Notes: generated by a model not told the origin, from the letters alone. Positions 2,337 through 42,445 are shown, counted from the stretch's first letter. The stretch is 64,000 nucleotides of DNA from Thermodesulfovibrionales bacterium (GCA_031082155.1 JAVHLL010000001.1:25058-89057); one strand, 5' to 3'. A program made the numbers and translations.

Positions 2337-2882
2337 TTACAAGGCCATGAGAACCATTATCATCTGGCGGCCTTCCATTTTCGGCGGTATTTCGACTTTT
2401 GCAATATCCTTTAGATCCAGCGACAGCTTGTTCAGCAGGTCCGCACCCAGTTCCTGACGGTTCAGTTCCCGCCCTCTGAAGCGGATTGTCACTTTGACCT
2501 TATCACCATGTTCGATAAAACTCCGCACATTCCTCTTCTTGAACTCATAATCGTGGGTGCCGATTAACGGGCGCATCCTGATGTTTTTGAGGGTGAGCGT
2601 CGCCTGCTTTTTCTTTGACTTCTGGAGTTTTTTGTTCTTATCGAATTTGAACTTCTGGTAGTCCATGATCTTGCAGACCGGTGGGTCGGCATCCGGGCTG
2701 ATTTCTACAAGATCCAGTTCCTGTTCCTCGGCCATCTTTAGCGCCGTCTCAATGTCCATGACGCCTATTTGTCCTTCATCGCCAACGACCCGAATCTGTT
2801 TGGCTTTAATCAGCCGAATCTGTTTGTTTACGCGTGTTTTATCAACAACCCTTACTGGAAATGCTTTTCGTCGATTAACTAT
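2337..2882 (-). CDS. infC: translation initiation factor IF-3, non-canonical start codon
   Basis: The tracked ORF (MDIETALKMAEEQELDLVEISP...KVTIRFRGRE...) is IF-3. The frame stays open upstream and encodes ...RVNKQIRLIKAKQIRVVGDEGQIGV, the conserved IF-3 N-terminus, with no ATG, GTG or TTG. An ATA at 2882-2880 sits 9 nt after GGAG. IF-3 genes classically use AUU/AUA-type starts. Confidence 0.9.
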   Translation of the reverse strand: MVNRRKAFPVRVVDKTRVNKQIRLIKAKQIRVVGDEGQIGVMDIETALKMAEEQELDLVEISPDADPPVCKIMDYQKFKFDKNKKLQKSKKKQATLTLKNIRMRPLIGTHDYEFKKRNVRSFIEHGDKVKVTIRFRGRELNRQELGADLLNKLSLDLKDIAKVEIPPKMEGRQMIMVLMAL

Positions 2883-3297
2883 TGTCTTTTTCTCCTTTTT
2901 CCTTCGAAATTCCTTGAGGATGAGAACTATATTTTATGGTGATCTTATAATCAATACGTGCATGCTGGGAGGGACGGTCGCTGATTTTTCCCTTGCAGGA
3001 AAGTTCTCCCTTTCCCGATTTTTCATGTTTTTTAACCATATGGGTAATCACTGAGGTGAGATCAAACCCGCCATCAACACAGTCTTTGATCATGCAATCC
3101 ATGTTGAAATATGCGTGGCGCGAGGGCCAGAAATTGACAGTACGGAGCATGGAAGCCTGTTTACATCCCTTCATATAATATGTCATCTCGATTTTTATAT
3201 CTGTTACATCAGGAAAGCATTCAGAAACCAAACCCGATTCAAGTCTGTGCTGTTTGTTCAGTTCCATTTTTTCCAGATAATTCTGCTTGTGTGCCAT
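2875..3297 (-). CDS. hypothetical Cys-containing protein
   Basis: 140-aa ORF between the cold-shock gene terminator and infC. Its stop overlaps the proposed infC start by 8 nt. I recognise no family. Confidence 0.5.
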   Translation of the reverse strand: MAHKQNYLEKMELNKQHRLESGLVSECFPDVTDIKIEMTYYMKGCKQASMLRTVNFWPSRHAYFNMDCMIKDCVDGGFDLTSVITHMVKKHEKSGKGELSCKGKISDRPSQHARIDYKITIKYSSHPQGISKEKGEKDNS

Positions 3298-3312
3298 TGT
3301 ACCTCAAAAGTA

Positions 3313-3343
3313 GAGCAGTCCCCTGATGGGCAGGGGACTGCTC
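3313..3343 (-). terminator. hairpin downstream of the cold-shock gene
   Basis: Perfect 13-bp stem GAGCAGTCCCCTG / CAGGGGACTGCTC with loop ATGGG, 8 nt after the csp stop. The U-tract on the minus strand is weak (CTACTTTTG). Confidence 0.6.
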
Positions 3344-3350
3344 CGGTCAG

Positions 3351-3551
3351 TTAATTTTTGATTACGTTGATTGCTTTGAGACCTTTTGGGCCATTTTCGG
3401 TATCAAAGGTGACAGAATCACCCTCGGCGAGGGATTTAAATCCGCTACCCTGGATGGAAGAATGGTGGACAAATACATCACTGCCGTCTTCACTTGTGAT
3501 AAAGCCGAAACCCTTGGAATCATTAAACCACTTCACTGTTCCTTTCGCCAT
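3351..3551 (-). CDS. CspA-family cold-shock protein
   Basis: [33 protein letters not shown] contains the RNP-1/RNP-2 cold-shock motifs. I chose the internal ATG at 3551, preceded by AAGGAGG, rather than the tracked start at 3578. Confidence 0.92.
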
Positions 3552-3595
3552 CTTGGACCTCCTTGTTCGAAAATTCAAATCTCAGAATAACCATT

Positions 3596-3631
3596 AAAAA
3601 AAGCCACAAAGCTAAAAGTCTTTGTGGCTTT
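3596..3631 (-). terminator. terminator-like hairpin inside the csp 5' leader
   Basis: The 12-bp stem AAAGCCACAAAG / CTTTGTGGCTTT is followed on the minus strand by a T-run. It lies about 45 nt upstream of the csp ATG, and no minus-strand gene lies upstream of it. Confidence 0.4.
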
Positions 3632-3823
3632 AGTCTACAAAAACTTCTGAAACTCTGGCGTTTATCTTGACATATGTTGTCGCAGAAGTCAATACATATG
3701 CGCATTTATATCTATTTATCAAAAGGTTGAGAGAGGTATGCTCTTGTGCATAAAATAGGTCGGTTCATTGGAGCCAAAGCCTCACTATTATTTTGGCCTT
3801 AAAAAACCGCTATCCGGGCACTC

Positions 3824-3853
3824 TTGACACGTCGATCAGTTAATTGTTAAATT
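3824..3853 (+). promoter_or_regulatory. sigma-70-type promoter of the hrcA operon
   Basis: TTGACA at 3824-3829, a 17-18 nt spacer, then TTAAAT/TAAATT at 3847-3853. CIRCE follows immediately. Confidence 0.55.
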
Positions 3854-3854
3854 A

Positions 3855-3881
3855 TTAGCACTTGACCATTGAGAGTGCTAA
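3855..3881 (+). promoter_or_regulatory. CIRCE operator (HrcA binding site)
   Basis: TTAGCACTT-N9-GAGTGCTAA against the consensus TTAGCACTC-N9-GAGTGCTAA. It ends 2 nt before the hrcA ATG. Confidence 0.92.
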
Positions 3882-3883
3882 AC

Positions 3884-4918
3884 ATGCAGAATTTAAGCGA
3901 ACGCAATAAAAAAATCCTCTATGCAATCGTGCAGAGTTACATAAATAATTTCGACCCCGTAGGGTCGAGAGTTGTAACCAAGCGCTATTCACTGGGCTTC
4001 TCTCCCGCTACGATACGGAATATCATGGCTGATCTTGAAGAAATGGGCTTTCTCGTGCAGCCCCACACCTCGGCGGGAAGAGTCCCTACCGATCTCGGAT
4101 ACCGGTTCTACGTCGATTCTCTCGCGGACGAAAGCGTTCATGAGTCAAACATGGAAGTCCTGCATGACCTTTACAGAAAACTCGAAGCATTAAGGAATAA
4201 TATCGATATGTTTCTTGGCGAGGCTACAAAAAGCATGTCGATGTTATCCCATTATCTTGGCGTAGCCATGTCTCCGGCTTCTGATCTCACCACGCTGAAA
4301 AAAATTGATCTCCTGAAATATACCGCGGGGAAAATAGCCGCCGTGCTCTTTACCGATGAAGGCCTGATCAAGAACAGGGTCATCACGATAGACGCGGATC
4401 TCTCACAGAAAGACCTTGCCAGAATTGCCGGATACCTGAATTCCGAATTTGCCGGATATCCCCTGGATGAGATACGCATGAAGGTGCTGAGGCAGATGTC
4501 GAGAGATAAGGTGAGATGCGACCATCTCCTCTCCAGGGCTATGCAGATCTGCCGGGATGCCCTCTCATTCCCTTATGGCGATCTCTTTGTCGCGGGGCTT
4601 TCCGGGGTGCTCGATCTTCCCGATTTTCATGACTTGAAAAAAATCAGGGAATTATCACGGGCCATCGAGGACAAACACATGATTATAAAACTGCTCGATG
4701 AGCTATCCGAATCTGAAGGAGTACAGGTCATCATAGGGTCTGAGAATGCCTCGGATGAAATGAAGCGGTTCAGTGTTGTTGCGTCTGCATGCCGGCAGGG
4801 TGACCGGCCGGTCGGTGTTGTCGGCATTATCGGTCCGACCCGTATGAACTATGCGAGGGCGATATACATTGTGGAAAACACTGCAAAATTCATCACTCAA
4901 ATGCTTGAAGGAAGGTGA
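3884..4918 (+). CDS. hrcA: heat-inducible transcription repressor HrcA
   Basis: MQNLSERNKKILYAIVQSYINNFDPVGSRVV...HTSAGRVPTDLGYRFYVD is typical HrcA. The start is moved to ATG 3884 because the tracked TTG at 3869 lies inside CIRCE. Confidence 0.95.
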   Translation: MQNLSERNKKILYAIVQSYINNFDPVGSRVVTKRYSLGFSPATIRNIMADLEEMGFLVQPHTSAGRVPTDLGYRFYVDSLADESVHESNMEVLHDLYRKLEALRNNIDMFLGEATKSMSMLSHYLGVAMSPASDLTTLKKIDLLKYTAGKIAAVLFTDEGLIKNRVITIDADLSQKDLARIAGYLNSEFAGYPLDEIRMKVLRQMSRDKVRCDHLLSRAMQICRDALSFPYGDLFVAGLSGVLDLPDFHDLKKIRELSRAIEDKHMIIKLLDELSESEGVQVIIGSENASDEMKRFSVVASACRQGDRPVGVVGIIGPTRMNYARAIYIVENTAKFITQMLEGR

Positions 4919-5532
4919 TCCATTTGCAGGAGTACGAAACAAACGAAACAAAGGAAAGAGAGATACAGGAGGCAGCAGAACCTGCTACTGGTACTGGTGA
5001 GATATCCCCTGAAGACGGGGGAGATGAGCAGGATCGCAGTGCTGCCGAACTGCAAGACATGAACAATAAATATCTGCGGCTTTATGCCGAATTCGAAAAT
5101 TATAAAAAGCGGGTTACGAAGGATAAAGAAGAACTTATTAAATACGGAAATGAGGGTCTCCTCTATGACCTTCTGCCCGTGGTCGACAGTCTGGAGATGG
5201 CGTTACAGCATGCAGCAGACGATGTATCTTCAGGTCTGGTACAAGGAGTAGAGTTAACGCTCAAGGAGATGAGGAAATCACTCGAGAAATATGGCCTCAT
5301 CCCGATTGAGGCGGAGGGGAAACCCTTTGATCCCGCGGTGCATCATGCGATGGCGCATCTTGAACGGGATGATGTTGAGGAAAATATTGTGGTAGAGGAG
5401 TACAGGAAAGGATATATGTTCAGGGATAAGGTGCTGCGCGCATCTCTCGTTGCAGTCTCTAAGAAGAACGAAGGATCAAAACAGGTAAACGGGGCGAATG
5501 AGAGAAACAATATGACAGAGGAGGAATCATAA
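4915..5532 (+). CDS. grpE: nucleotide exchange factor GrpE
   Basis: [20 protein letters not shown]...FDPAVHHAM...[14 protein letters not shown] are GrpE signature regions. The gene sits between hrcA and dnaK, and its GTG start overlaps the hrcA stop. Confidence 0.9.
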
Positions 5533-5533
5533 A

Positions 5534-7465
5534 ATGGGGAAAGCAGTTGGTATAGATCTTGGAACTACGAATTCAGTAGTTGCCGTAGTTCAGGGCGGTG
5601 ATCCCGTTGTTATCCCGAATCAGGAAGGATCCAGGACAACGCCATCTGTTGTTGCAATCACTGAAAAAGGGGAAAGACTTGTTGGACAGATAGCAAAGAG
5701 ACAGGCGATCACAAACCCCGAAAATACGATATTTTCCATAAAAAGGCTGATGGGAAGAAAGTTCAATGCACCGGAAGTGGAGCACGCGATGAAGAGATTG
5801 CCCTACAAGATTCTCGATGCCCCGAATGCCGATGCACATGTGGAAATACGGGGCAAACGCTACTCGCCCCCTGAGATATCCGCAATGATCCTGCAGAAAC
5901 TGAAGCAGGCGGCAGAGGATTACCTTGGCGAACCGGTAACAGAAGCCGTCATTACGGTCCCTGCATATTTTGACGACAGTCAAAGGCAGGCCACGAAAGA
6001 CGCAGGCAGAATCGCCGGACTTAATGTCCTGAGGATTATCAATGAGCCGACCGCAGCAGCGCTTGCCTATGGTATGGACAAGAAAAAGGAAGAAAAAATC
6101 GGAGTATATGATCTCGGCGGTGGTACGTTTGATATCTCAATCCTTGAGATTGGAGAAGGCGTCATCGAAGTCAGGTCGACAAACGGAAATACCTATCTGG
6201 GCGGCGACGATTTTGACCTAAGGATTATGGACTGGATGGTGGAGGAATTCAAGAAAGACCAGGGTATAGACCTCAAGAATGACAAAATGGCGTTGCAAAG
6301 GTTGAAGGAAGCTGCGGAAAAGGCAAAAGTGGAGCTTTCGACCGCAAACGAAACCGAGATAAACCTCCCGTTTGTGACGGCCGATGCGACGGGCCCCAAA
6401 CATCTTCTTATGAAACTCGCAAGATCAAAAATGGAGCAACTCGTTGGAGACCTGGTTGAGGGGACCATCGGACCGTGCAAAAATGCATTGGACGATGCAG
6501 GACTTTCAGCCTCGAATATAGATGAAATCCTGCTTGTTGGCGGGCAGACACGCACGCCCAAGGTTCAGCAGGTGGTGCAGAACTTCTTCGGAAGGGAGCC
6601 GAATAAAACGGTGAACCCCGACGAGGTAGTCGCTGTCGGCGCTGCTATCCAGGCGGCGGTTCTCAAGGGTGATGTGAAAGAGGTCCTCCTGCTGGACGTT
6701 ACTCCGCTTTCGCTGGGTATAGAGACGCTCGGAGGAATATTCACCAAGATCATCGAGAGAAATACTACCATCCCGACCAAGAAGAGTCAGATATTCTCGA
6801 CGGCCACAGACAGTCAGCCAGCCGTATCCATCAAAGTGTTCCAGGGCGAACGGGAGATGGCGGCAGATAACAAGATCCTCGGCAATTTTGAACTCATTGG
6901 CATTCCACCGGCGCCGAGAGGAGTGCCCCAGGTCGAAGTGACTTTCGATATCGATGCGAATGGCATTCTCCATGTTTCCGCAAAAGACTTGGGTACGGGA
7001 AAAGAACAATCTATCCGGATAACCGCCTCAAGCGGTCTGTCAGAAGAAGAGATCAAGAATATGGTGCGGGACGCAGAATCCCATGGCGAAGACGACAAGA
7101 CAAAGAAACAACTTGCCGAGGCACGGAATGAAGCGGACAACCTCGTATATACTGTCGAAAAATCCCTAAAGGAATACGGCGACAAAGTGAGCGAAGGCGA
7201 GAAGAAAGAGATCGAAGAAGCGGTTGAGCGATGCCGGAAGGCAAAAGATACAGCCACTACCGCATCGGAGATCAAATCCGCGACAGAAGCGCTTACGGCA
7301 AAATCTCACAAGCTCGCAGAACATCTCTACAAAGGCGCCGGAGCACAGGCAGGCGAAGGTCAGGCAGGTCCATCAGCCGAAGGACAGGGGCAGGAAGGTG
7401 CGAAGGGACCTGAAGAAGAGGTTGTTGAGGCAGAATTTGAAGATGTTGATAAAGATAAAAAATAA
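5534..7465 (+). CDS. dnaK: molecular chaperone DnaK (Hsp70)
   Basis: [25 protein letters not shown] and [13 protein letters not shown] are the Hsp70 signatures. 643 aa. Confidence 0.98.
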
Positions 7466-12004: not shown

Positions 12005-13417
12005 TTAGATATCGTAATACAGGAAGAACTCATACGGATGCGGTCTGAGCCTCAGGGCGTCGACTTCTCTTGTCCTCTTGTAGTGCAGCCACATCTCGAT
12101 AACATCCTCGGTGAATACGTCGCCTTTTTTGAGGAAACTGTGGTCTCTCTCAAGGCAGTCAAGCGCATCTTCAAGCGAACCGGGAAGGTTCGGTACCTTT
12201 GCGAGTTCCTCGGGCCTGAGGTCATAGATGTCCTTGTCGAGCGGTTCTCCCGGATCGATTTTGTTCTCGATGCCGTCGAGACCCGCCATGAGCATTGCAG
12301 AGAACGCGAGGTACGGGTTGCATGACGGATCGGGGAACCTTACCTCTACCCTTTTCGCCTTCGGACTTGAAGAGTACATGGGGATTCTTATCGCAGCAGA
12401 TCTGTTCCTGCTGGAGTATGCGAGATTGATCGGAGCCTCATACCCGGGCACGAGCCTCTTGTAGGAATTTGTTGTCGGTGCGACAAATGCAGCGAGCGCA
12501 GCAGCATGTTTCAGAATTCCACCGATATAGTAGAGCGCAAGGTCCGAGATTCCTGCGTAGCCGTTCCCCGCAAACAAGGGTTTGCCGTTTTTCCAGAGGC
12601 TCTGGTGTGTATGCATGCCTGAGCCGTTGTCGGCGAAGAGGGGCTTAGGCATCATTGTCACGGTTTTCCCATGCCTCAACGCAACATTCTTGATGATATA
12701 TTTATACATCATCAGTTTGTCTGCCATATTCACAATTGGAGAGAATCTCATGTCTATCTCCGCCTGTCCGCCCGTAGCGACTTCATGGTGTTGCGCTTCT
12801 ACTTCTATCCCTGCCTTTTCCAGTTCAAGCACCATCTCGGTACGGATATCCTGCTGCTTATCCATCGGCGGGACAGGGAAATATCCTTCTTTGTGCCTTG
12901 GTTTATACCCGAGGTTCGGACTCTCTTCTCTCCCCGAATTCCATATGCCTTCGACAGAATCTACGAAGTGATACCCGCTGTTTGCGGTATAATCAAACCG
13001 CACATCATCGAAGATAAAAAACTCTGCCTCTGGGCCGAAGAACGCGGTATCCGCAACCTTGGTTGATTTCATGTATGCTTCAGCCTTCTGTGTTATGTAA
13101 CGCGGGTCTCTCGAATACGGTTCTTTTGTGATCGGATCGACAATATTGCAGATCAGACTGAGGGTAGGGTGCTGGGTGAAAGGATCCATCACGGCGGTAG
13201 ACGGATCAGGTATTACAAGCATATCGCTCATATGAATAGCCTGCCATCCCCGGATAGAAGACCCGTCAAAGCCCAGTCCGTCTTCGAACAGGCCTTCCGA
13301 GAGTTCTTTGGACGGGACGGAGAAGTGCTGCCAGAGTCCCGGAAAATCCATAAACTTCAGATCGACCATCACGACTTTGTTCTTCTTGGCAAATTCCATT
13401 ACTTCCTTTGGTTTCAT
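12005..13417 (-). CDS. glnA: glutamine synthetase type I
   Basis: 470 aa. [22 protein letters not shown] and the [16 protein letters not shown] region are GSI signatures. Confidence 0.97.
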
Positions 13418-13551: not shown

Positions 13552-14886
13552 TTATAACGAATATCCGGTTTCCCCGTGCTGCGATATATCAAGCCCGGTC
13601 ACCTCCGCTTCTTCGTTAACGCGCAGTCCGATCACTTTATCAATGCCTTTCAGCAGGACAACGGTGACGGCAAACGAATAGACTGCGGTCACGAGTATGG
13701 CAATCAACTGCGTTTTGACCAGCGCAAAATTACCGAAAAATAACCCGTTGCCTCCTGCCGGGTTGATAACACTCTGTGCGAAAAGGCCGGTCGCGAAACT
13801 GCCGAGCACCCCGCCTACTCCGTGCACGCCGAACGCATCGAGTGAATCGTCATAGCCAAGCCTGCTTTTCATATTCAGGGATGCGTAACACACCGCTCCC
13901 GCTACCAGTCCGATGACCAATGATGACATGGGGCTTACAAAACCCGCGGCAGGCGTGATCGTTGCAAGTCCGGCAATCGAGCCGGTGGCTGCGCCGAAGG
14001 TGGTTGGCTTCCCCCTGTGCAGCCATTCGATGCATACCCATGCGAGTGTAGCGGCAACCGCGGACGTATGGGTTGCGACAAAGGCCATTGTGCTTAATGT
14101 CCCTGCAGACAGCGCGCTCCCGGCGTTGAATCCGAACCATCCGAACCAGAGGAGCCCTGTCCCCAGCACCGTCATGGGGAGATTATGGGGATACATAGCT
14201 TCCTGCAAATACCCTTTCCTCTTGCCGATAATCAACGCTGCTGCGAGTGCCGAGATGCCTGATATCAGATGCACTACGATACCGCCTGCGAAATCCAGCG
14301 CACCCATTTCCTTCAGCCACCCTCCTGTACCCCATACCCAATGTGCTACCGGGTCATATACGAGTGTTGACCACAACAGGGTAAAAACAAAGAATGCGGA
14401 AAATTTCATCCGTTCCGCAAAGGCGCCGGTGATGAGCGCCGGTGTGATGACCGCAAACATTGCCTGGTACATCATAAACGCGATATGCGGTACGGTCGCA
14501 GCGTAATCAGGGTTGGGTTCTACCCCAACGCCGTTCAATCCTATCCAGTCGAGGCTTCCGATGACGCCGTGTATATCAGGGCCAAAGGAAAGGCTGTAGC
14601 CGATAAGGATCCATTGCACGCTGATAATTGCGATCGCGACAAAACTCTGCATGATCGTGCCAAGCACATTTTTCCCCCTGACCATACCTCCGTAGAACAG
14701 TGCAAGCCCTGGGGTCATGAGCATGACGAGCGCGGTGGATACCAGTATCCATGCGGTGTCTCCTGTATCAATCTTCGGTGTAGCTGTTGTATCAATTCCG
14801 GCCTGGACAAGCTGATCTCCACCGAATACGCTTCCGGCTGCGCCCAGCATGACGAGCATCAAGAGAATACCAACAAATCCTTTCAT
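13552..14886 (-). CDS. amt: ammonium transporter (Amt family), copy 2
   Basis: 444 aa with a signal peptide. DTGDTAWILVSTALVMLMTPGLALFYGG, DFAGGIVVHLISG and LDAFGVHGVGG are Amt signatures. Confidence 0.95.
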   Translation of the reverse strand: MKGFVGILLMLVMLGAAGSVFGGDQLVQAGIDTTATPKIDTGDTAWILVSTALVMLMTPGLALFYGGMVRGKNVLGTIMQSFVAIAIISVQWILIGYSLSFGPDIHGVIGSLDWIGLNGVGVEPNPDYAATVPHIAFMMYQAMFAVITPALITGAFAERMKFSAFFVFTLLWSTLVYDPVAHWVWGTGGWLKEMGALDFAGGIVVHLISGISALAAALIIGKRKGYLQEAMYPHNLPMTVLGTGLLWFGWFGFNAGSALSAGTLSTMAFVATHTSAVAATLAWVCIEWLHRGKPTTFGAATGSIAGLATITPAAGFVSPMSSLVIGLVAGAVCYASLNMKSRLGYDDSLDAFGVHGVGGVLGSFATGLFAQSVINPAGGNGLFFGNFALVKTQLIAILVTAVYSFAVTVVLLKGIDKVIGLRVNEEAEVTGLDISQHGETGYSL

Positions 14887-14930: not shown

Positions 14931-14950
14931 CTATCCACGAATCATGCCAA
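14931..14950 (-). promoter_or_regulatory. sigma-54-like promoter candidate for amt(copy 2)-glnA
   Basis: The minus strand reads TTGGCAT-GATTC-GTGGA about 45 nt upstream of the amt ATG. The -24 GG is present, but the -12 element reads GG instead of GC. Confidence 0.3.
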
Positions 14951-15013
14951 GCTTATAACTTAATGATTAATATAGGAAAAAAACAAAATACCGATTTGAA
15001 CGCGGGAATATAC

Positions 15014-15147
15014 TACAATATTGTCGGTACGGGACCGGGAGTTTTGAGAGCGGCATAGTTATTTTCCCTTATTTTTCAATATCCGGCGCGGATTAGGGCA
15101 TGTCAAAGAGCATTCCTACAAATTTGTATGAATAACAAATTTGTAGG
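15014..15147. promoter_or_regulatory. cluster of TACAA-N2-TTGTA palindromes (candidate enhancer or operator)
   Basis: TACAATATTGTC at 15014-15025, TACAAATTTGTA at 15117-15128 and AACAAATTTGTA at 15134-15145. The last two form the larger palindrome CCTACAAATTTGT-N7-ACAAATTTGTAGG. The 16-mer CTACAAATTTGTATGA recurs at 18113-18128. Confidence 0.45.
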
Positions 15148-15198
15148 ATAACCAAAAGCATCAATGAGAACTAAGAGAAACGACCCGGAAAGTCCAGA

Positions 15199-15546
<348 letters not shown>

Positions 15547-15570: not shown

Positions 15571-15621
15571 AATAGTCACCAGTCATGAGAATCAATGACT
15601 AATGACTATTGACTATTTTTA
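15571..15621 (-). promoter_or_regulatory. intercistronic hairpin and heptamer repeats between amt and glnK
   Basis: AATAGTCA-cc-AGTCAT / ATGACT-aa-TGACTATT inverted repeat with an 8-nt loop. Three tandem (A/T)TGACTA units follow at 15595-15616. Confidence 0.35.
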
Positions 15622-16995
15622 CAGACTGTATGCTTTTTCACCATGCTGGCTTTCGTCGAGCCCGGTGATCTCATGCTCAGCTTCAACTCTCACCCCGAGC
15701 ACCGCCCGGGCGATCGCAAAGATAATCAGGGTCATCACCCCACTGTATACGATTGTTATGCCCACTGCGATCAGCTGTGTGATCAACTGACCGGGGTTCC
15801 CGTAGAGGAGACCGGTACCGGCTTCGTTGATTGCAGGGTCTGCAAACACGCCGGTCAGTATGGCGCCGAGGATACCGCCGACACCATGGATGCCAAAGGC
15901 GTCGAGAGCGTCGTCATATCCGAGTTTCGGCTTAATGCTCGCAACTGCAAAGTAGGGCACGATACCTGCGAGGATACCGATTATTATCGCGCCTTGAATA
16001 TTCACGAACCCTGCAGCAGGGGTTATTGCAACAAGACCTGCTATTGCACCGGAAGCAAGACCAAGCACCGTGGGTTTCTTCGTGTGTAACCATTCCGTGA
16101 ACATCCATGACATTGCTGCGAGCGCAGTTGCGGTGTTAGTGTTGAGAAAAGCTACTCCAGCAAGTCCGTTCGCGGCAACGGCGGAGCCGGCGTTAAACCC
16201 GAACCAGCCGAACCACAGGAGCCCGGCGCCGGTGATAACAAGGGTCAGATTGCTCGGCTTGAGTGAAGCTTCGCGTCTCTTCCCGAGAACCAGGGCGCCG
16301 ACGAGCGCTGCAATCCCTGCGTTTACGTGTACCACGGTGCCGCCTGCAAAATCGAGTGCCCCAAGTTTTGCAAGAAACCCGCCGCCCCATACCCAATGGG
16401 CTACAGGCACATACACAACTGTCATCCAGAGTATCGAGAAGAAGACCCAGGCGGAGAATTTCATTCTTTCAATGTATGCGCCGCTTGCAAGCGCAACCGT
16501 TATGGCTGCAAATGTCATTTGATATACTATAAAAACATATTCAGGTATAGTCATCGAAAGGCTTTTGACGGTTACGCCGGACAGGAAGAGTTTCTCAGCG
16601 CTCCCAATGAATCCTCCAATGTCCGAACCGAAAGTGAACGTGTACCCGTAAGCAATCCACAGGAAACTTACGATGCAATACGTTACAAAAGACATTGCCA
16701 TGGTATTGAGTGTGTCTTTCCTTTTCGCAAGACCGCCGTAAAACAACGCGAGCCCCGGCAGTGTCATCAGCATTACGAGCGCGGTAGCAACAATCATCCA
16801 GGCGGTATCGCCTGTGTCGAGCTTGGGAGCAGGAGTCTCCTCCAATACCGGAACCGCTTCATCCGCAGGGGCTGGCTGAGCAGGCAAAGCCTGCTCAGCT
16901 GCTGGAAGGGAAGGAGGGTTAGCCTGCTCTTCAGCAAAAGCCCATCCGCTTAAAAGCATGAGTGCTAAAATCGTGAATATAACAATATTTTTCAT
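15619..16995 (-). CDS. amt: ammonium transporter (Amt family), copy 1
   Basis: 458 aa with a signal peptide and a Pro/Ala-rich linker. DTGDTAWMIVATALVMLMT.PGLALFYGG, DFAGGTVVHVNAG and LDAFGIHGVGG are Amt signatures. Confidence 0.95.
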   Translation of the reverse strand: MKNIVIFTILALMLLSGWAFAEEQANPPSLPAAEQALPAQPAPADEAVPVLEETPAPKLDTGDTAWMIVATALVMLMTLPGLALFYGGLAKRKDTLNTMAMSFVTYCIVSFLWIAYGYTFTFGSDIGGFIGSAEKLFLSGVTVKSLSMTIPEYVFIVYQMTFAAITVALASGAYIERMKFSAWVFFSILWMTVVYVPVAHWVWGGGFLAKLGALDFAGGTVVHVNAGIAALVGALVLGKRREASLKPSNLTLVITGAGLLWFGWFGFNAGSAVAANGLAGVAFLNTNTATALAAMSWMFTEWLHTKKPTVLGLASGAIAGLVAITPAAGFVNIQGAIIIGILAGIVPYFAVASIKPKLGYDDALDAFGIHGVGGILGAILTGVFADPAINEAGTGLLYGNPGQLITQLIAVGITIVYSGVMTLIIFAIARAVLGVRVEAEHEITGLDESQHGEKAYSL

Positions 16996-17854: not shown

Positions 17855-18031
17855 TTACTGTTTTTCATCCTCCTTCCTGATGTCGTATTTTTTTATCTTG
17901 TACCCAATCATCCTTTCCGTTATGTCCAGCTTTTTTGCAGCCCTTGCCATTATCCAGTTACATGCTCTCATTGCATTGAGTATCTCTTCTTTCTCGATCT
18001 CTCTCACTTTTTCCCTTAGCGATCCCATCAT
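17855..18031 (-). CDS. stand-alone Fis/NtrC-type HTH_8 mini-protein (58 aa; below the ORF-track cut-off)
   Basis: Hand translation gives MMGSLREKVREIEKEEILNAMRACNWIMARAAKKLDITERMIGYKIKKYDIRKEDEKQ*. This matches the C-terminal DNA-binding helix-turn-helix of NtrC-family activators (E.E.I..AL....N...AA..LGI.R..L..K.KKY.I). The RBS is AGGTGGG. Confidence 0.55.
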   Translation of the reverse strand: MMGSLREKVREIEKEEILNAMRACNWIMARAAKKLDITERMIGYKIKKYDIRKEDEKQ

Positions 18032-18045
18032 CCCACCTGTTCTCT

Positions 18046-18066
18046 GTATATCGAAAACCGTGCCAG
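18046..18066 (-). promoter_or_regulatory. sigma-54-like promoter candidate
   Basis: The minus strand reads CTGGCAC-GGTTT-TCGAT about 15-35 nt upstream of the HTH_8 ATG. The -24 element is perfect and the -12 element is poor. Confidence 0.3.
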
Positions 18067-18110
18067 TTTTTAACTTATTGATTTAAAGAGATAAATATTA
18101 TTTATTTATA

Positions 18111-18146
18111 CTACAAATTTGTATGATGCTACAATCTTGTAGTACA
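18111..18146. promoter_or_regulatory. second pair of TACAA-N2-TTGTA palindromes
   Basis: TACTACAAATTTGTA-TGATGC-TACAATCTTGTAGTA. Both 12-mers are palindromic and nested in a larger dyad. The pair lies about 50-80 nt upstream of the TGGCAC element. Confidence 0.45.
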
Positions 18147-18492
18147 AAATAGTGGTACAGCAGTTTCGCGGACGAGAGGAGGGAAAGCCGGAATTTTATG
18201 AGCAAATCAAGTTCTTGAAACAATTGATGACAGCAACAAAATGCCTCAGCAGTCCCTGCTTGTCGGTTCTTCTAGGATGGTATATTGGCTCTGGGTTCTG
18301 TACGCAAGTCTCAGCAAGATCCATTATCCTGCAGAATTCACTGGAAGTATTGCAGCTTATCAGATAATCCCCTAGTGGGCTGTAAATTTTATGGCAGTTT
18401 TTATTCCCAGCCCTGAGCTCATTATCGGTTTAAATCAAACCTGCAGATCTATAGATAGTGAAAAGGTCTTCTTCCAAAAGCCTGAATATTTC

Positions 18493-32823: not shown

Positions 32824-34104
32824 TCAGTGCACCAGGTTATATTGCACAATATAGGCAGCTATACCCGCGAAATATCCGGCGGCGGCGAGCGGCCCTATGC
32901 GGCGCGCATACCAGAAAAATTCGATCTTCTCCAGTCCCATTGCGGCCACACCCGCAGCCGAACCGATGATCAGGATCGAGCCGCCTGTTCCTGCACAGTA
33001 GGCCATGAACTCCCAGATAAAAGAGTCCGCCGGAAACTGCGCAAGCGGGTACATTCCCATGGAAGCGGCCACCAGGGGAATATTATCCACTATGGCGGAA
33101 ACAAGGCCGATGATAATGACGATCATGGTTTGATTGCCGAGCTTTGCATCCAGCCACCCGGCCAGTGCCGGAAGCATGCCGTTTGCGGAAAGGGTAGCCA
33201 CCGCTAAAAGGATGCCAATGAAGAACACGACTGACGCCATATCGATGCGCTTGAGTGCCTTGGTCAATCTGAGGTGATCGAAATCCTCTTCAGACTTGTT
33301 GCGATGAAGGAGTTCCCCTGTCAACCAGACAACACCAAGGGCCAGCAAAATGCCAAGATAGGGGGGCAGATGCGTAAATGCCTTGAATATCGGGACAAAG
33401 ATCAGTGCTCCCATGCCCATGAAGAACATCAGTTTCTTTTCGAACGGCGAACAGCTGGAAGCCCCGTTTTCGACCTTGTCCGGGGGCACAACATTGCCTT
33501 TGACCATGAATGAGGCTATGACCAAAGGTACCAGCAGATTGACCATGGAAGCAATCCAGGTAGTTTTCATGATATTGAGTGTTGTGATCTGTCCGCCGAT
33601 CCAGAGCATGGTGGTGGTCACATCGCCGATTGGTGACCAGGCGCCGCCTGCATTGGCGGCAATCACGATAATGCCAGCGAAGAAGAGGCGTTGTTTATGG
33701 TCCTTAAGAAGGCGTTTCATCAGGGCGACCATCACGATGGTGGTGGTCATGTTGTCGAGAATCGACGAGAGATAGAAGGTGATAAAGCCGATGATCCAGA
33801 GCAGGCTTGTCAGTTTGGTTGCCTTAATGCGCGTGGTGATGACCTCGAAACCGCCGTGGGAGTCTGTCACCTCGACAATGGTCATGGCTGAGATCAGAAA
33901 GAATACGATGGCCGCGGTCTCAGCCAGTTTTTCAGTGAGTTGATGGATTACTGTTTCCACGCCCAGCGGGTTTGCAAACGAGTACAAGGTCCACATTAGT
34001 CCAGCGGCCAACAGGGCCGTGGCTGATTTGTTAATTTTGATCGGGTGCTCGAGCGCGATCATTGAGTAAGCGAGCACGAATACAACTGCTACCATTGCCA
34101 TCAT
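32824..34104 (-). CDS. NhaD-type Na+/H+ antiporter (IT superfamily)
   Basis: 426 aa, polytopic. ANAGGAWSPIGDVTTTMLWIGG and AGTGGSILIIGSAAGVAAMG are NhaD-like motifs. RBS AAGGAGG. Confidence 0.8.
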   Translation of the reverse strand: MMAMVAVVFVLAYSMIALEHPIKINKSATALLAAGLMWTLYSFANPLGVETVIHQLTEKLAETAAIVFFLISAMTIVEVTDSHGGFEVITTRIKATKLTSLLWIIGFITFYLSSILDNMTTTIVMVALMKRLLKDHKQRLFFAGIIVIAANAGGAWSPIGDVTTTMLWIGGQITTLNIMKTTWIASMVNLLVPLVIASFMVKGNVVPPDKVENGASSCSPFEKKLMFFMGMGALIFVPIFKAFTHLPPYLGILLALGVVWLTGELLHRNKSEEDFDHLRLTKALKRIDMASVVFFIGILLAVATLSANGMLPALAGWLDAKLGNQTMIVIIIGLVSAIVDNIPLVAASMGMYPLAQFPADSFIWEFMAYCAGTGGSILIIGSAAGVAAMGLEKIEFFWYARRIGPLAAAGYFAGIAAYIVQYNLVH

Positions 34105-34424: not shown

Positions 34425-35939
34425 TTACTTAAGCGTTATTGGCATTCCCAGCATCGGCCAGAATGTTACTATCGCAAAGCCGATGATTGCCACAAGCACC
34501 ACACTCAACAATAAGCCATGTCTAAAAAATTCACCCGGTGTAAACTGTTTTGATTCATAGGCAATCGCGTTCGGTGCAGCGCCGATCAGAAGCACAAAAG
34601 GCATACCTGCAGTAATCAGGGATGAGTAGAAAATTACATCAGGGGCTACACCCAGATATGGTGCGATAACCAGCGAAACAGGCAACGAGATCGCTATCGC
34701 AGCTACGTTCATAATAAAGTTCGTCATAATCAGGACAAAGGTTGCGATGCTGAGAACGAATACAAGCCAATGGGCGTTCTGGAACATGACAAGCCACTGA
34801 ACTGCCATCCACTGCGCAGCTCCCGTCTGCCAGAGGCAGAAACCGATACTCATTGCGCCGCTGAAAAGAAGGATGATATTCCAGGGAATATCTTCAAGTT
34901 CTTTTACAGTCAGCACCTTGAATATAAAGAAAAGAAGCGTTGATACGAGCATTATTGCTGCCCTGTCCAACGACTTTAACGCAGGAACAAAGGACTGCAT
35001 TGACATTACCGCGATAGCGCCTAACACCGTAATGATGACGAATTTTTCATCCCTTGTCATAGGCCCGAGTTCCTTGGAGAGTTTCGTGACTCTTTCCCTG
35101 AGTCCGGGGATGACACTCTTTTCAGGCTTCAGAAACATCATGAGGTATATCCAGATCAGAAATACCATGATCCAACCAATCAAAAAAGAGAATTTTGTAA
35201 GCTCAAAGAAACCTACTGTCTTGCCGGTAAATTCTGCAAACATTCCGGCGCCTGCTGCAGCCCTTGCAGAACCGAGGAAGGTAATAACGCTTCCGGCTCC
35301 GGCAGCATAAGCCATGCCGATGAACAATGACTTGCCGAATTTTGTAGGTTTATCTCCTTCACCATAGAGAGCATTGATAGCAAGCAATATCGGAAATACT
35401 GTGGCTGCGGCAGCGGTATGCGCCATGACATGTGCAAGACCGGCTGTAACCACCAGCGCTCCCAGCATGATCATGCTTGTTTTTTCGCCCACGATCTGGA
35501 GCATCTTGTATGCGAGCCGCTTTGTAAGCCCTGATTTTGTAAAGGCAAGCCCTACAACAACCGATGCGAAAATGAACATGACGGACGGGTCCATAAAGTC
35601 TTTAAAGGCATCTTTTGCAGGGCGTATTGCAAAGAGAGCCTGAAAGACGCCGATTGCAATCGCAGTGACGCCGATAGGAACAACCTCAAATATCCACCAG
35701 GTGGAAGCCAGTATGAAAAGCGCTATAGATCCTTTTCCCTGCGGTGACAGGACAAAATGCTTGCCTCCCGGGTCAACCGCGTCAGGCCAAGGGGGCATAA
35801 AATAGATCCACAAAAAGAGGCCTAATCCAATAAGGATAAACATAACCCGTTTCCAGTCAAATTTGTCTTTGGTTTCTGCAAGAACAATTTCAGGCGGTGG
35901 TTGGGGTAACCCCTCTGATTGTTTTTTCTGATCAGCCAT
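34425..35939 (-). CDS. DASS/SLC13-like anion permease (IT superfamily), copy A
   Basis: 504 aa, polytopic. GMAYAAGAGSVITFLGS and LLIGAAPNAIAYES are hairpin-type motifs. It is about 80 percent identical to copy B by eye. Confidence 0.85.
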   Translation of the reverse strand: MADQKKQSEGLPQPPPEIVLAETKDKFDWKRVMFILIGLGLFLWIYFMPPWPDAVDPGGKHFVLSPQGKGSIALFILASTWWIFEVVPIGVTAIAIGVFQALFAIRPAKDAFKDFMDPSVMFIFASVVVGLAFTKSGLTKRLAYKMLQIVGEKTSMIMLGALVVTAGLAHVMAHTAAAATVFPILLAINALYGEGDKPTKFGKSLFIGMAYAAGAGSVITFLGSARAAAGAGMFAEFTGKTVGFFELTKFSFLIGWIMVFLIWIYLMMFLKPEKSVIPGLRERVTKLSKELGPMTRDEKFVIITVLGAIAVMSMQSFVPALKSLDRAAIMLVSTLLFFIFKVLTVKELEDIPWNIILLFSGAMSIGFCLWQTGAAQWMAVQWLVMFQNAHWLVFVLSIATFVLIMTNFIMNVAAIAISLPVSLVIAPYLGVAPDVIFYSSLITAGMPFVLLIGAAPNAIAYESKQFTPGEFFRHGLLLSVVLVAIIGFAIVTFWPMLGMPITLK

Positions 35940-37184
35940 AATATTGCCTCCTTATTCCTTGATAAGTGAATCGGAAATTTCATCAAAGACTTCGATCATC
36001 CGTACGAGACCGACGAACTTCTTCTTGTTCTCTAAAACCGGCAGGAGAACAAGGTCGTGATGCACCATCAGATATGCCGCTTTGGTTACCGGATCGGCCG
36101 GATCAACAAACTGTTTTGCAGGGGCCATTATCTCGCTGACCGGCTTCTCCGCAAGCTCTTTCGACTGTTTGGTGAAAAGCGTATCCCAGATTAAAGAGAG
36201 TTCAGATTCCTGTTCCTTGTATCCCTGAGCCTTTTCTGAACCCTGCATAAACCTTGGTTCCAGCCCTCTGAGGATATCCTTCAGGGTAAGGGTCCCCATG
36301 AGGTTGTACTTTTCGTCGAACACCAGTATCGCCATCGGCTCAGGGTACTTCTTCGAGCTGATAAACGACACCTTGATAATCCTTACCGCCTGGTTGATCG
36401 TAAACCAGTAAGGGATGTGGGGATACTCAAAAATACCGATCATTACATCTTTCACAAGTTTTCCGTCTGCCATAACACCCTCCTTTTTATGCAACCTTTC
36501 TTTCGAATTCCATGAAAATTCTGAACCTGTCCGATTTCTTCACCGACTGCATGTACATGATCAGGGTATCTCCCGAATAAAATTGCTGGGTGAGCAGAGA
36601 AGCGGGAGCGCCTTCGGGGAGGTTCAGCAAACGAGCCTCATCTGTTTTCAGATGGGTAAGCTCGATAAAATTCTTTACCCTGGTAATTTTTATGCCGTAT
36701 TTTTTTTCGAAGAGATCAAAAAGGGAACGGGTTTCGATGTCGTCTTCCAGGAGGAGAGGGCAGAGATGGTAGGGGATATAGCATTCCTGTACCATAACCG
36801 GCTCATCCTGGACGGACCAGAGTCTTTTGATATAGATGACATGCTTTTCAGGGGATATGTCGAGAAGAGTATCAAGGCCATTCAACGGCATCATGACAGT
36901 TCTGGCAAGGACCTGCGGGGAAAAGGGGATCCCCTCTTCGAAGCACAGTTCTCTGAGATGCGCCTGCATATTCAGCCCTTCAGCTTGAGAGGTCCTGGAG
37001 ATGAAAGTTCCTTTTCCCTGCTGACGCTTCAGGTACCCCTGCCTGACAAGCTCCATAACGGCTGTTCTTACGGTGACCCTGCTGACATTAAATGTTTTGC
37101 AAAGCTCTTCTTCCGTTGGAATTTGTGCGCCTAACACCCATTCGCTCTTCTCGATTTTATTCTTGAAAATTTCGTACAACTGGT
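35782..37184. repeat. 1403-bp perfect direct repeat, copy 1
   Basis: It appears identical to 40927-42329 (offset 5145). All six-frame ORFs inside are identical between copies, and spot-checked nucleotide lines match. Identity drops abruptly at both edges: G versus A at 35781/40926, and G versus A at 37185/42330. Confidence 0.9.
35952..36473 (-). CDS. CBS-pair domain protein (173 aa), copy A
   Basis: Two CBS motifs. The start is set at MADGKLVKDV (RBS AAGGAGG 5 nt upstream), by analogy with the paralog at 56485. Confidence 0.85.
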   Translation of the reverse strand: MADGKLVKDVMIGIFEYPHIPYWFTINQAVRIIKVSFISSKKYPEPMAILVFDEKYNLMGTLTLKDILRGLEPRFMQGSEKAQGYKEQESELSLIWDTLFTKQSKELAEKPVSEIMAPAKQFVDPADPVTKAAYLMVHHDLVLLPVLENKKKFVGLVRMIEVFDEISDSLIKE

Positions 37185-37224
37185 GATACAGCTTATGATG
37201 ATCTTCCCTGTCTATTAATTCCAT
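36487..37224 (-). CDS. GntR/UTRA regulator, paralog 2 (copy A)
   Basis: (M)MELIDREDHHKLYHQLYEIFKNKIEKSEWVLGAQIPTEEELCKTFNVSRVTVRTAVMELVRQGYLKRQQGKGTF. An alternative start lies one codon upstream at 37227. Confidence 0.9.
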   Translation of the reverse strand: MELIDREDHHKLYHQLYEIFKNKIEKSEWVLGAQIPTEEELCKTFNVSRVTVRTAVMELVRQGYLKRQQGKGTFISRTSQAEGLNMQAHLRELCFEEGIPFSPQVLARTVMMPLNGLDTLLDISPEKHVIYIKRLWSVQDEPVMVQECYIPYHLCPLLLEDDIETRSLFDLFEKKYGIKITRVKNFIELTHLKTDEARLLNLPEGAPASLLTQQFYSGDTLIMYMQSVKKSDRFRIFMEFERKVA

Positions 37225-37304
37225 CATTGGTATGTCCTGATAATATAAAGTTAAGTGGTCAAAATGTTTCTACAAACTTATCTTAATTCCACTGGCGAAT
37301 GTGA

Positions 37305-37592: not shown

Positions 37593-38963
37593 TTATATCT
37601 TTAATACATAATATCTTAGCCAGACGTAAACGGTTGCAACGAGAACGGTCATGACCATTATGGGCATACCGTAGAGCATGAACTTCCCGAAGGAGATCCT
37701 TTTGCCGAGCTTTTCAGACATGCCGACAACAATAACATTTGCCGATGCACCGATTGCGGTCCCGTTTCCGCCAAGACATGCGCCAAGAGCCAGTGACCAC
37801 CAGAGCGGCATCAGATCAGCATGATGGAGAAGCTGTGTCCCCGAAAGGTCCGGCCAGAGCTGCTTTGCCATATCAACGATCAATGGGTTCATGGTCGCAA
37901 CATACGGGATGTTGTCAATAAAGGCTGATGCAAAGGCAGAAAACCACATGACAACCATTGAGGTTGCGAACATGTTTCCCTGTGTTAACTCAAGGACTTG
38001 CACAGACATCCATTTTATGAGCCCTACCTTCACAACACCCCCAATAATAATGAAGAGACCCATGAAGAAAAAGATTGTCGGCCATTCTACTTCTGCGAGA
38101 ATATGATGCGGTTCGTGGGTTTTTGAAAGAAGGAGCAGGAGACCGGCGCCGAATAATGCTACTGTTGCAGGCTGGAAATGCAGCACTCCATGGAATATAA
38201 AACCGGTCAGAACAATTGCAAGGACGAAGAGTGATTTTTTCAGCATAACCGGGTCTTTGATGGCCTCATTTTCCTCCATGGACATGATTCTTGTTTTCAG
38301 TTCCTCTTTTGTCTTGAGTTTCTTGCCCCAGATGAGTTTTATCGCAAAGACGTAAAAAACCATTATGATAATGACAATAGGAGACAGATGGTATATGAAA
38401 TCCATAAAGCTGAGCTGGGCCTTTGAAGCTATCATGATATTCGGGGGGTCGCCGATAAGGGTTGCGGTACCACCGATGTTGGAAGCTAAAGCGCAGGAAA
38501 TGAGATAGGGCAGAGCGTCCACCTGTAATGCATCTGCAATGAGAATGGTCACCGGGACGATCAGGAGTACGGTGGTAACATTGTCAAGAAGTGCGCTTAA
38601 TACGGCGGTGACAATAGCAAATATTACCAAGATTCTGAATGGCTCACCTTTTCCCAACTTGGCGCTTTTTACTGCTATATATTCAAATACGCCGGTCGGT
38701 CTCATCAGGTTGATGATGACCATCATCGAGATAAGCAGGAAGATGACATTCCAGTCAATCCCGAATTCCTCTACATGAAATGCCTCGTGCTGTTCAAGAA
38801 TCTTGAGAATAAGCATTACCCCTGCGCCGAAGACTGCAACAATCGTTTTATGTATTTTTTCCGATACAATAACTGCATAAGCGATCAGGAATATCGCGGT
38901 CGCTATCCAGAACGAAGAACCCATAACAACCTGGGTTGTGGCAGCAGCAACTTCTTCGGTCAT
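37593..38963 (-). CDS. ArsB/NhaD/CitMHS-like permease (IT superfamily), copy A
   Basis: 456 aa, polytopic. ASNIGGTATLIGDPPNIMIAS and GGNGTAIGASANVIVVG motifs. The start overlaps the upstream CBS gene stop (ATGA). Confidence 0.85.
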   Translation of the reverse strand: MTEEVAAATTQVVMGSSFWIATAIFLIAYAVIVSEKIHKTIVAVFGAGVMLILKILEQHEAFHVEEFGIDWNVIFLLISMMVIINLMRPTGVFEYIAVKSAKLGKGEPFRILVIFAIVTAVLSALLDNVTTVLLIVPVTILIADALQVDALPYLISCALASNIGGTATLIGDPPNIMIASKAQLSFMDFIYHLSPIVIIIMVFYVFAIKLIWGKKLKTKEELKTRIMSMEENEAIKDPVMLKKSLFVLAIVLTGFIFHGVLHFQPATVALFGAGLLLLLSKTHEPHHILAEVEWPTIFFFMGLFIIIGGVVKVGLIKWMSVQVLELTQGNMFATSMVVMWFSAFASAFIDNIPYVATMNPLIVDMAKQLWPDLSGTQLLHHADLMPLWWSLALGACLGGNGTAIGASANVIVVGMSEKLGKRISFGKFMLYGMPIMVMTVLVATVYVWLRYYVLKI

Positions 38964-42329: not shown

Positions 42330-42369
42330 AATATAATTTTTGGTGGTCTTCCCTATCGATAAGTTCCAT
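41632..42369 (-). CDS. GntR/UTRA regulator, paralog 3 (copy B)
   Basis: MELIDREDHQKLYYQLYEIF... It is identical to copy A from about residue 15 onward. The start is set at MELID (42369) rather than the tracked 42390. Confidence 0.9.
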   Translation of the reverse strand: MELIDREDHQKLYYQLYEIFKNKIEKSEWVLGAQIPTEEELCKTFNVSRVTVRTAVMELVRQGYLKRQQGKGTFISRTSQAEGLNMQAHLRELCFEEGIPFSPQVLARTVMMPLNGLDTLLDISPEKHVIYIKRLWSVQDEPVMVQECYIPYHLCPLLLEDDIETRSLFDLFEKKYGIKITRVKNFIELTHLKTDEARLLNLPEGAPASLLTQQFYSGDTLIMYMQSVKKSDRFRIFMEFERKVA

Positions 42370-42371
42370 AA

Positions 42372-42389
42372 TATTACTATGTAATAACA
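42372..42389. promoter_or_regulatory. AT-rich palindrome abutting the GntR copy B start
   Basis: TATTAC-TAT-GTAATAACA. It contains the 10-mer TGTAATAACA, which is the reverse complement of TGTTATTACA in the 57254 palindrome. Confidence 0.25.
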
Positions 42390-42445
42390 ATATAATAAAT
42401 AATCGTTACAACAATATGCTATAGTATTTCAAGGACCCGATATGT

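Follow-up and report, generated by a model that had tools for sequence, protein, structure and literature searches.

The 64,000-nucleotide stretch of Thermodesulfovibrionales bacterium DNA considered in this study (GCA_031082155.1 JAVHLL010000001.1:25058-89057; hereafter the window, 64 kb) contains five copies of the palindrome TACAA-N2-TTGTA, all of them in two intergenic regions, one upstream of amt2-glnA and the other upstream of an operon that begins with the gene for a 58-amino acid HTH_8 protein (mini HTH_8-porin-amt-glnK). These palindromes are read here as upstream activating sequences (UASs), or enhancer sites, of a sigma-54 nitrogen-assimilation regulon in Thermodesulfovibrionales, with an enhancer-binding protein (EBP) of the NifA family as the most likely activator; on the sequence evidence, the probability of this reading is put at about 0.8. 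The motif, its position and its conservation, the -24/-12 element, the box resembling a site for integration host factor (IHF), the association with nitrogen genes, and the link between palindromes and EBP genes were all computed directly. An initial annotation of the same DNA had proposed enhancer sites for sigma-54 promoters at the two nitrogen operons, and the conserved positions, the promoter, and the nitrogen-gene association support that proposal.

Matches were counted over the whole window, with sequence shuffles (n=100) as the chance baseline. The exact sequence TACAANNTTGTA occurs three times, at the sites starting at 15117, 18112, and 18130, while the shuffle mean is 0.07 and none of the 100 shuffles attained three. 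When one mismatch is allowed, TACAA-N2-TTGTA has five copies, and again no shuffle attained this number (mean 0.95). The five copies at two loci in the initial annotation therefore stand, but its starts for the second locus, 18114 and 18132, are to be corrected to 18112 and 18130; likewise the three copies that it placed at amt2-glnA are present, but those at 15014 and 15134 each carry one mismatch and are not exact. Adjacent sites are 17 bp apart at 15117/15134 and 18 bp apart at 18112/18130, and each pair makes a larger dyad, as had been described; the stem of the dyad at 15114-15148 is 14 bp. The 16-mer said to be shared by the two loci is CTACAAATTTGTATGA, found exactly at 15116-15131 and 18111-18126. 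The extended consensus of the site is cTACAAwwTTGTAg, with the order ACA-N4-TGT inside one site and TGT-N7/8-ACA, also GTA-N5/6-TAC, across neighbouring sites.

Downstream of each array, on the minus strand and in the right orientation, is the TGGCA(C/T)-N5 element with an imperfect -12 region that had been noted previously. The canonical sigma-54 promoter used for comparison, TGGCAC-N5-TTGCW, combines GG at -24 with GC at -12 at a separation of exactly 10 nt; both predicted window promoters have a perfect -24 half (TGGCAC and TGGCAT) and the correct spacing, but lack the GC at -12. A UAS was taken to consist of dyads, usually in tandem, approximately 70-200 bp upstream of the -24/-12 element and conserved together with it, and such dyads are found at both operons, with site centres at 52.5 and 70.5 bp (mini HTH_8) and at 70.5, 173.5, and 190.5 bp (amt2). 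The distance of 70.5 bp from site centre to the T of TGGCA is common to the two loci, being that of the single 15014 site in one and of the distal 18130 site in the other. An IHF-type box, AAATCAAnnnnTTA, is located between palindromes and promoter, so that both loci have the layout of site or sites, IHF-type box, and TGGCAY; the IHF box or bend looked for between UAS and promoter is thus present as a sequence match.

The same arrangement is found at the mini HTH_8 promoter of relatives. These comprise 80 loci on one-genome-per-species contigs, found via an alignment of the mini HTH_8 protein and nearly all from metagenome-assembled genomes of Thermodesulfovibrionales/Nitrospirota; L-numbers below refer to these loci or contigs, and mononucleotide shuffles served as the chance baseline for their upstream regions. 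The gene order mini-porin-amt-glnK is kept, often followed by amt2-glnA or amt2-glnK. Comparison of orthologous upstream regions, one of the checks suggested with the initial annotation, found the motif conserved: a palindrome with at most one mismatch is upstream of the mini gene in 71/80 loci (1.2 expected), and most of these sites begin at -110 and/or -92 from the ATG, as in the window. Adjacent sites are spaced by 18 bp (39 cases), 17 bp (17 cases), or 19 bp (5 cases). The suggested scan for sigma-54 promoters gave a similar outcome, with the -24/-12 pattern [TC]GGCA[CT]-N5-[TG]nG approximately 35 nt before the mini ATG in 75 of the 80 regions (0.83 expected); most of these promoters read TGGCAC-GnTTT-T(G/A/C)GCT and are normal sigma-54 promoters with GC at -12. 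In 78 upstream regions anchored on TGGCA, information peaks only at the two palindromes, at an AAAtCAA..agtT block, and at the promoter. The block, at -19..-6 from TGGCA, corresponds to the IHF consensus WATCAANNNNTTR, which is exact in 27/80 loci (0.84 expected).

The 80 loci and the window together make up 931,684 bp and contain 90 exact matches plus 145 with one mismatch. The mini gene is preceded by 99 of these, amt2 by 56, and the porin call by 21, and just 4 fall within annotated coding sequences. Pairs of palindromes 18 bp apart also precede nrfH-nrfA (L017 and L018), the gene for an NMT1_2/NrtA-like binding protein with ATP-binding cassette (ABC) components and glnK (L005), and YnfA with a long amt (six loci). 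A search of metagenome contigs for exact tandem pairs with gaps from 5 to 7 matched at least 120 contigs. Among the 120 matches listed, 69 have amt, glnK, glnA, mini, porin, EBP, or nrfHA genes within 1.5 kb, and 57 of these 69 listed contigs have TGGCAY at a fixed distance, 45-48 nt at gap-6 pairs, the spacing of mini-type promoters, and 163-166 nt at gap-5 pairs, the spacing of amt2-type promoters. The frequency of nitrogen-gene neighbours depends on the gap, being 66/100 for gaps 5 and 6 together versus 3/20 for gap 7 among the matches listed, and the gap-7 matches look like unrelated repeats. One further metagenome match precedes a glutamate synthase gene. The enrichment near nitrogen genes anticipated in the initial annotation is borne out by both the counts in relatives and the metagenome scan.

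The spacer between glnK and amt2 is also conserved in plan. In 25 relatives it repeats that of the window, with a pair of sites 17 bp apart directly after the glnK stop codon, a gap of ~80-100 bp, a single site, an IHF-type box, and TGGCAY-N5-TnGC. The IHF-type box of the relatives' amt2 promoters reads aaaTCAAnnnnTT and the promoter TGGCAY-N5-T(G/A/C)GC/AT. The three dyads at amt2 would accommodate three dimers, sufficient for one hexamer. In eight relatives the third palindrome, equivalent to 15014-15025 of the window, forms the apex of a perfect hairpin whose stem measures 17-22 bp, often followed by a T-run (L014 4457-4545; L005 9898-9985; L018 10091-10180; also L017, L026, L035, L031, and L008). 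The arms of this hairpin vary between species yet remain complementary, and the RNA folds are -26 to -40 kcal/mol. Such covarying arms, together with the terminator-like pair of the window (15148..15114), which folds to -20 kcal/mol, would suit dyads that function in RNA and not as DNA sites for a protein, forming hairpins that terminate or attenuate transcripts from upstream at their 3' end. That the dyads act in this way is very improbable, since the mini-promoter sites are at a fixed distance from TGGCAY whatever gene is upstream and on either strand, and it is the sequence itself, not mere complementarity, that is conserved. The long arms are confined to the single glnK-amt2 spacer site and are not present around the window copy at 15014-15025: an extension of the flanks by at least 6 bp is found at 8/31 single spacer sites, versus 1/112 mini-promoter sites and 0/30 pair sites, and a terminator-only reading was rejected on these counts. 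A hairpin function of the dyads is at most a secondary, lineage-specific co-option of what are more probably enhancer sites, and in the eight relatives the third-site hairpin looks like an intrinsic terminator of the upstream operon, built around an enhancer site.

Some relatives have leaders of 300-450 nt with long inverted repeats between the amt2 sigma-54 promoter and the ATG (L005 10000-10444; L014 4560-4899; L018 10190-10637; L026 10100-10346; L023 10420-10639). These could be inserted elements or unknown leader RNAs; an Rfam scan found zero RNA families in the nitrogen loci of the window and of the five relatives with long amt2 leaders. In the window, a sigma-70-like element is found between the pair and the third site, and may, with some uncertainty, be a second, basal promoter. 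It has a counterpart only in the closest relatives, L002 and L003, and distant relatives carry another block, ATGTTGATA, at this place.

The protein that reads the palindromes is rather likely to be a NifA-family EBP with GAF, AAA+, and HTH_8 domains, encoded outside the window. This assignment is based on EBP genes adjoining the sites, on sites at EBP promoters, and on a shared recognition-helix signature. GAF-Sigma54_activat-HTH_8 proteins of 511-539 amino acids have their genes immediately upstream of this operon in L009, L053, L024, and L042, and are also encoded on several metagenomic contigs. Against the NCBIfam model of nifA (TIGR01817, cut-off 528.85 bits), the proteins of L009 and L053 score 585 and 584 bits, while those of L160 and L113 are slightly under the cut-off at 514 and 511 bits. 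The full set of NifA-family features (GAF, AAA+ with GAFTGA, a C-terminal HTH_8 domain, and the TIGR01817 score) was found in relatives only. In L160 and L163 a palindrome pair overlaps both the EBP start codon and a TTGACC-17-TACAAT promoter, a layout that would be expected for autorepression. The EBP gene of L107 is preceded by three sites and TGGCAT, and those of L042, L113, and L197 by a single site. In an AT-rich lineage (L113 1804-1836, L197 10875-10907, and L184 4175-4207) the EBP stop codon lies within a pair, beyond which come TGGTAT-N5-TTGCA and then glnA, and there is no mini gene. The last residues of the activator in these three loci (…KKYKIVKTYKIV) are encoded by its own presumed binding sites, which also serve the glnA promoter. 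The recognition helices of the GAF-type EBPs read T[PSE]R[QM][ILM][GN]YK..KY, as compared with TERMIGYKIKKY in the mini protein and TERMLGYKIQKY in the L160 EBP.

Classically, amt, glnK, and glnA are under NtrC control, and the cognate activator might be a response-regulator EBP of this kind (NtrBC-like) rather than one of the GAF/NifA type. L152 has genes for a histidine kinase and a response regulator before glnK, followed by the pair, amt2, and glnA, and L030 has an EBP gene ~475 bp upstream of the mini gene. An NtrC-type activator is nevertheless quite improbable: the helices of the response-regulator EBPs (L152, L030, and L159) are unrelated to the mini helix, for example DRVSLWRKLKRYG and SFRSFRHRLHKYG, and no palindromes with up to 2 mismatches accompany the sigma-54 promoter that directly follows the response-regulator gene of L152. 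Palindromes are found at GAF-type EBP promoters, but none at the sole upstream region of the response-regulator type inspected in detail (L152). In L152 1-1800, from a close relative, a sigma-54 promoter, TGGCATGGTTTTTGGA, and glnK come after the genes for the histidine kinase and the NtrC-type response regulator; TACAA palindromes are lacking, an arrangement that suggests a second, separate EBP circuit on PII genes in the lineage.

The mini HTH_8 protein has a match to Pfam PF02954 at residues 9-49 (48.3 bits versus a gathering threshold of 22) and consists of the HTH_8 domain alone; its gene carries its own Shine-Dalgarno sequence, AGGTGGG. Homologues form 185 clusters of 52-88 amino acids, and the named ones are from Nitrospirota/Thermodesulfovibrionia, for example Dissulfurispira thermophila. 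The gene is genuine and strongly conserved: the alignment has 22 invariant positions, and the recognition helix is invariant as ITERMIGYK. The best NCBIfam match of the mini protein is the C-terminus of nifA TIGR01817, while its PDB profile matches are 2m8g (a 70-amino acid DNA-binding domain (DBD) structure, E 1e-10), which we take to be the DBD of A. aeolicus Nlh2, the C-terminus of NifA 9qq6, and NtrC1 4l5e. Judged by these profiles, the mini protein counts as a DBD-only paralogue of the domain with which NifA-family EBPs bind DNA. It probably binds the same palindromes as the activator and modulates the regulon, because the recognition-helix signature of the activator (TxRxxGYK) is shared. 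A feedback competitor is the simplest role for the mini protein, since activation of the operon yields it first, but mixed dimers or an architectural function are alternatives. A more far-reaching scheme is doubtful but possible: the activator would turn on the mini gene first and the mini protein would then occupy the palindromes or form mixed dimers, giving a competitive anti-enhancer feedback loop, and ammonium assimilation in the order would have a NifA-family protein in place of NtrC as its master regulator, acting via the new site cTACAA-N2-TTGTAg. If this is true, competitive anti-enhancer feedback would be a control principle not described for EBP systems.

The palindromes could also be read by the mini protein alone, as an autorepressor or a Fis-like architectural protein, with the activating EBP binding elsewhere or acting from solution. 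The mini gene is directly behind the best-conserved pair in 71/80 loci, the invariance of its recognition helix parallels that of the site, and Fis is itself a stand-alone protein of the HTH_8 fold. However, in L113, L197, L184, L160, and L163 the same pairs adjoin glnA and EBP genes on contigs where no mini gene is close by, and the EBPs have the same recognition-helix signature as the mini protein. The sites are also ~50-190 bp upstream of a conserved -24/-12 promoter, which needs an activator, and the anchored profile has no other conserved block fit to be its UAS. A mini protein acting as sole reader is therefore unlikely.

With a NifA-family EBP as activator, dimers of this sigma-54 activator would bind the palindromes, that is, the tandem pairs 17-18 bp apart and, at amt2, the third site. 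An IHF-type bend at the AAATCAAnnnnTTA box would bring the activator over the closed sigma-54 holoenzyme at TGGCAY-N5-TnG(C/A), and ATP hydrolysis by the activator would then open the promoter. The mini HTH_8-porin-amt-glnK and amt2-glnA operons would be switched on and, in relatives, also nrfHA, the NrtA-like ABC transporter, and glutamate synthase. Judging from NifA, the signal would be nitrogen limitation, with the GAF domain sensing 2-oxoglutarate or PII. In this scheme it is the identity of the binder and the parts played by IHF and the mini protein that we infer.

Several observations weigh against the enhancer reading or parts of it. The -12 dinucleotide in the window is not GC, but GA at 18052-18051 and GG at 14936-14935. 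At the mini promoter, the window and its closest relatives read TCGAT at -12, so the imperfect -12 is probably a local deviation within a conserved promoter, given that most relatives have GC. The predicted start of the mini gene would give a leader of just ~8-9 nt. The distance from TGGCA to ATG at the mini gene (window 18031-18065, minus strand) is conserved at 33-39 nt in most loci, and this would imply a 5' leader of ~8-13 nt with the Shine-Dalgarno sequence nearly at the 5' end of the RNA. Nine of the 80 loci have no site at up to one mismatch and carry degenerate versions of the TACAAAAATGT type instead. Among the 120 metagenome matches listed, 51 have no adjacent recognised nitrogen gene, although many of these are other repeats, gap-7 matches, or short contigs. 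Neither rpoN nor an EBP gene is found within the 64-kb window, where tblastn with a relative's EBP gave nothing at E<=1 and a Pfam search of the large open reading frames (ORFs) gave no sigma-54 activator; the initial annotation had likewise seen no cognate regulator encoded in the window apart from the mini HTH_8 protein. The presence of rpoN and an EBP in this genome is therefore presumed from relatives, and the GAFTGA-bearing Sigma54_activat proteins of those relatives imply that rpoN exists in the lineage. Linkage of the EBP gene is occasional, a GAF-type EBP being within 7 kb of the operon in just ~5/80 loci. The AlphaFold2 model of the mini protein (predicted local distance difference test score 90.6, helices merged) has no significant fold match, and its top non-significant matches are Fis and the NtrC4 and NtrC1 DBDs at E ~0.5, so that the sequence evidence gains nothing from it. 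NifA DBDs in isolation are monomers with weak binding to a single UAS (PMC10590331), which makes an efficient mini-protein competitor plausible but not assured.

Known nitrogen regulators have different sites. The NtrC site TGCACC-N5-GGTGCA was rejected, as neither half nor full site is in either intergenic region, and the same two regions contain no match to the NtcA (GTA-N8-TAC) or TnrA-GlnR (TGTNA-N7-TNACA) sites, in agreement with the initial annotation that the motif is unlike those of NtrC, NtcA, and TnrA. The NifA UAS, with the consensus TGT-N10-ACA (PMC10590331), was also rejected, with none in either region. Enterobacterial NtrC at glnAp2 and glnK-amtB resembles the present system in its targets (glnA, amt, and glnK) and in having tandem dyads upstream of -24/-12. 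The NtrC sites that repress sigma-70 glnAp1 and glnL have a parallel in the sites overlapping sigma-70-like EBP-gene promoters in L160 and L163, and the glnAp1/glnAp2 arrangement has one in the window's possible sigma-70-like promoter, which the pair and the third site flank. The differences from the NtrC system are the site (cTACAA-N2-TTGTAg here versus TGCACC-N5-GGTGCA), the spacing of 17-18 bp, and a candidate regulator with a GAF input rather than a receiver domain. The similarity to NifA includes candidates that pass TIGR01817, the GAF-AAA+-HTH_8 architecture, the TPRQxxY[KR]I recognition helix, and, as at nifH, a layout of UAS, IHF, and sigma-54 promoter; however, TGT-N10-ACA is lacking here and the targets are those of ammonium assimilation, not nif. 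NorR, a GAF-type EBP with three enhancer sites that are all needed for activation, is similar in the type of candidate EBP and in the three dyad sites (pair and single) at amt2, but NorR has the site GT-N7-AC, a nitric oxide signal, and other targets, and the mini promoter usually has two sites. The mini protein resembles Fis and the EBP DBDs of A. aeolicus (2m8g, 4l5e, and 3e7l/4fth) in being a stand-alone HTH_8 domain, and Fis is thought to be derived from the NtrC DNA-binding domain. In contrast to Fis, the mini protein has 58 amino acids and no N-terminal beta-hairpin arm, its helix signature is that of NifA-type EBPs, and its gene heads an operon controlled by the sites.

In the literature searched, neither the motif nor the mini HTH_8 protein is described, and nothing was found on how this order regulates nitrogen, although databases beyond reach may hold an entry. 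The type of system, a sigma-54/EBP nitrogen switch, is known; it comes here with a new UAS consensus, a NifA-family candidate regulator, and a DBD-only paralogue. Thermodesulfovibrionales are sulfate reducers that abound in groundwater and sediments and are for the most part uncultured, and their nitrogen assimilation now has a testable cis-regulatory code (site, IHF-type box, and -24/-12) and a candidate regulator; the site can be used for predicting nitrogen regulons in metagenome-assembled genomes. A NifA-family protein has apparently taken on general ammonium assimilation, through a DNA site of another sequence, and the main target operon begins with a widespread DNA-binding domain that stands alone and may be a feedback competitor or a helper.

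The features of the window are collected in Table 1. The order of transcription, on the minus strand, is mini HTH_8, porin-like, amt1, glnK, a 312-bp spacer, amt2, and glnA.

Table 1. Palindromes, predicted promoter elements, and genes at the two nitrogen operons of the window
Feature	Coordinates	Strand	Sequence or family	Position or remark
Distal palindrome of amt2-glnA pair	15134-15145		AACAAATTTGTA on + strand, 1 mismatch	centre 190.5 bp upstream of T of TGGCAT
Proximal palindrome of amt2-glnA pair	15117-15128		TACAAATTTGTA, exact	centre 173.5 bp upstream of TGGCAT
Third, single palindrome at amt2-glnA	15014-15025		TACAATATTGTC, 1 mismatch	centre 70.5 bp upstream of TGGCAT
Distal palindrome at mini HTH_8 operon	18130-18141		TACAATCTTGTA, exact	starts -110 from ATG; centre 70.5 bp upstream of TGGCAC
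Proximal palindrome at mini HTH_8 operon	18112-18123		TACAAATTTGTA, exact	starts -92 from ATG; centre 52.5 bp upstream of TGGCAC
Predicted sigma-54-type promoter of amt2-glnA	14949..14934	-	TGGCATGATTCGTGGA; TGGCAT-GATTC-GTGGA	
Predicted sigma-54-type promoter of mini HTH_8-porin-amt-glnK	18065..18050	-	TGGCACGGTTTTCGAT; TGGCAC-GGTTT-TCGAT	
IHF-type box at amt2 promoter	14968..14956	-	AATCATTAAGTTA, 1 mismatch to WATCAANNNNTTR	6 nt upstream of TGGCAT
IHF-type box at mini HTH_8 promoter	18083..18071	-	AATCAATAAGTTA, exact WATCAANNNNTTR	5 nt upstream of TGGCAC
Sigma-70-like element	15078-15106	-	TTGACA-17-GATATT, 10/12 matches	8 nt downstream of pair, upstream of third site
mini HTH_8 gene, 58 aa	18031..17855	-	Pfam HTH_8, E 8e-13	first gene of operon
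Porin-like secreted protein, 255 aa	17775..17008	-	no Pfam or NCBIfam family	
amt1	16995..15619	-		part of mini HTH_8 operon
glnK	15537..15199	-		last gene of mini HTH_8 operon
amt2	14886..13552	-	Pfam Ammonium_transp	
glnA	13417..12005	-	Pfam Gln-synt_C/N	

The 255-amino acid porin-like protein is a constant companion of amt in the operon, with 36-73% identity across relatives and metagenomic contigs. In L002, the closest fetched relative with a long contig, ~4.3 kb (2677-6956) including a 399-amino acid ORF separate an ABC-F gene from the mini HTH_8 promoter, as compared with ~460 bp in the window (18142-18492), so that there is an indel beside the enhancer. Elsewhere in the window, 34425-37227 and 39570-42390 (minus strand) are apparent duplicate three-gene units with equal ORF sizes of 504, 180, and 246/252 amino acids; the first gene of one unit (34425-35939) encodes a Na_sulph_symp/CitMHS transporter, and there are additional CitMHS paralogues at 32824-34104, 37593-38963, and 44452-45882. 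The last of these begins ~480 nt downstream of an nhaA-I RNA (Rfam RF03057) at 43909-43968 on the plus strand, which scores 41.6 bits versus a gathering threshold of 37.

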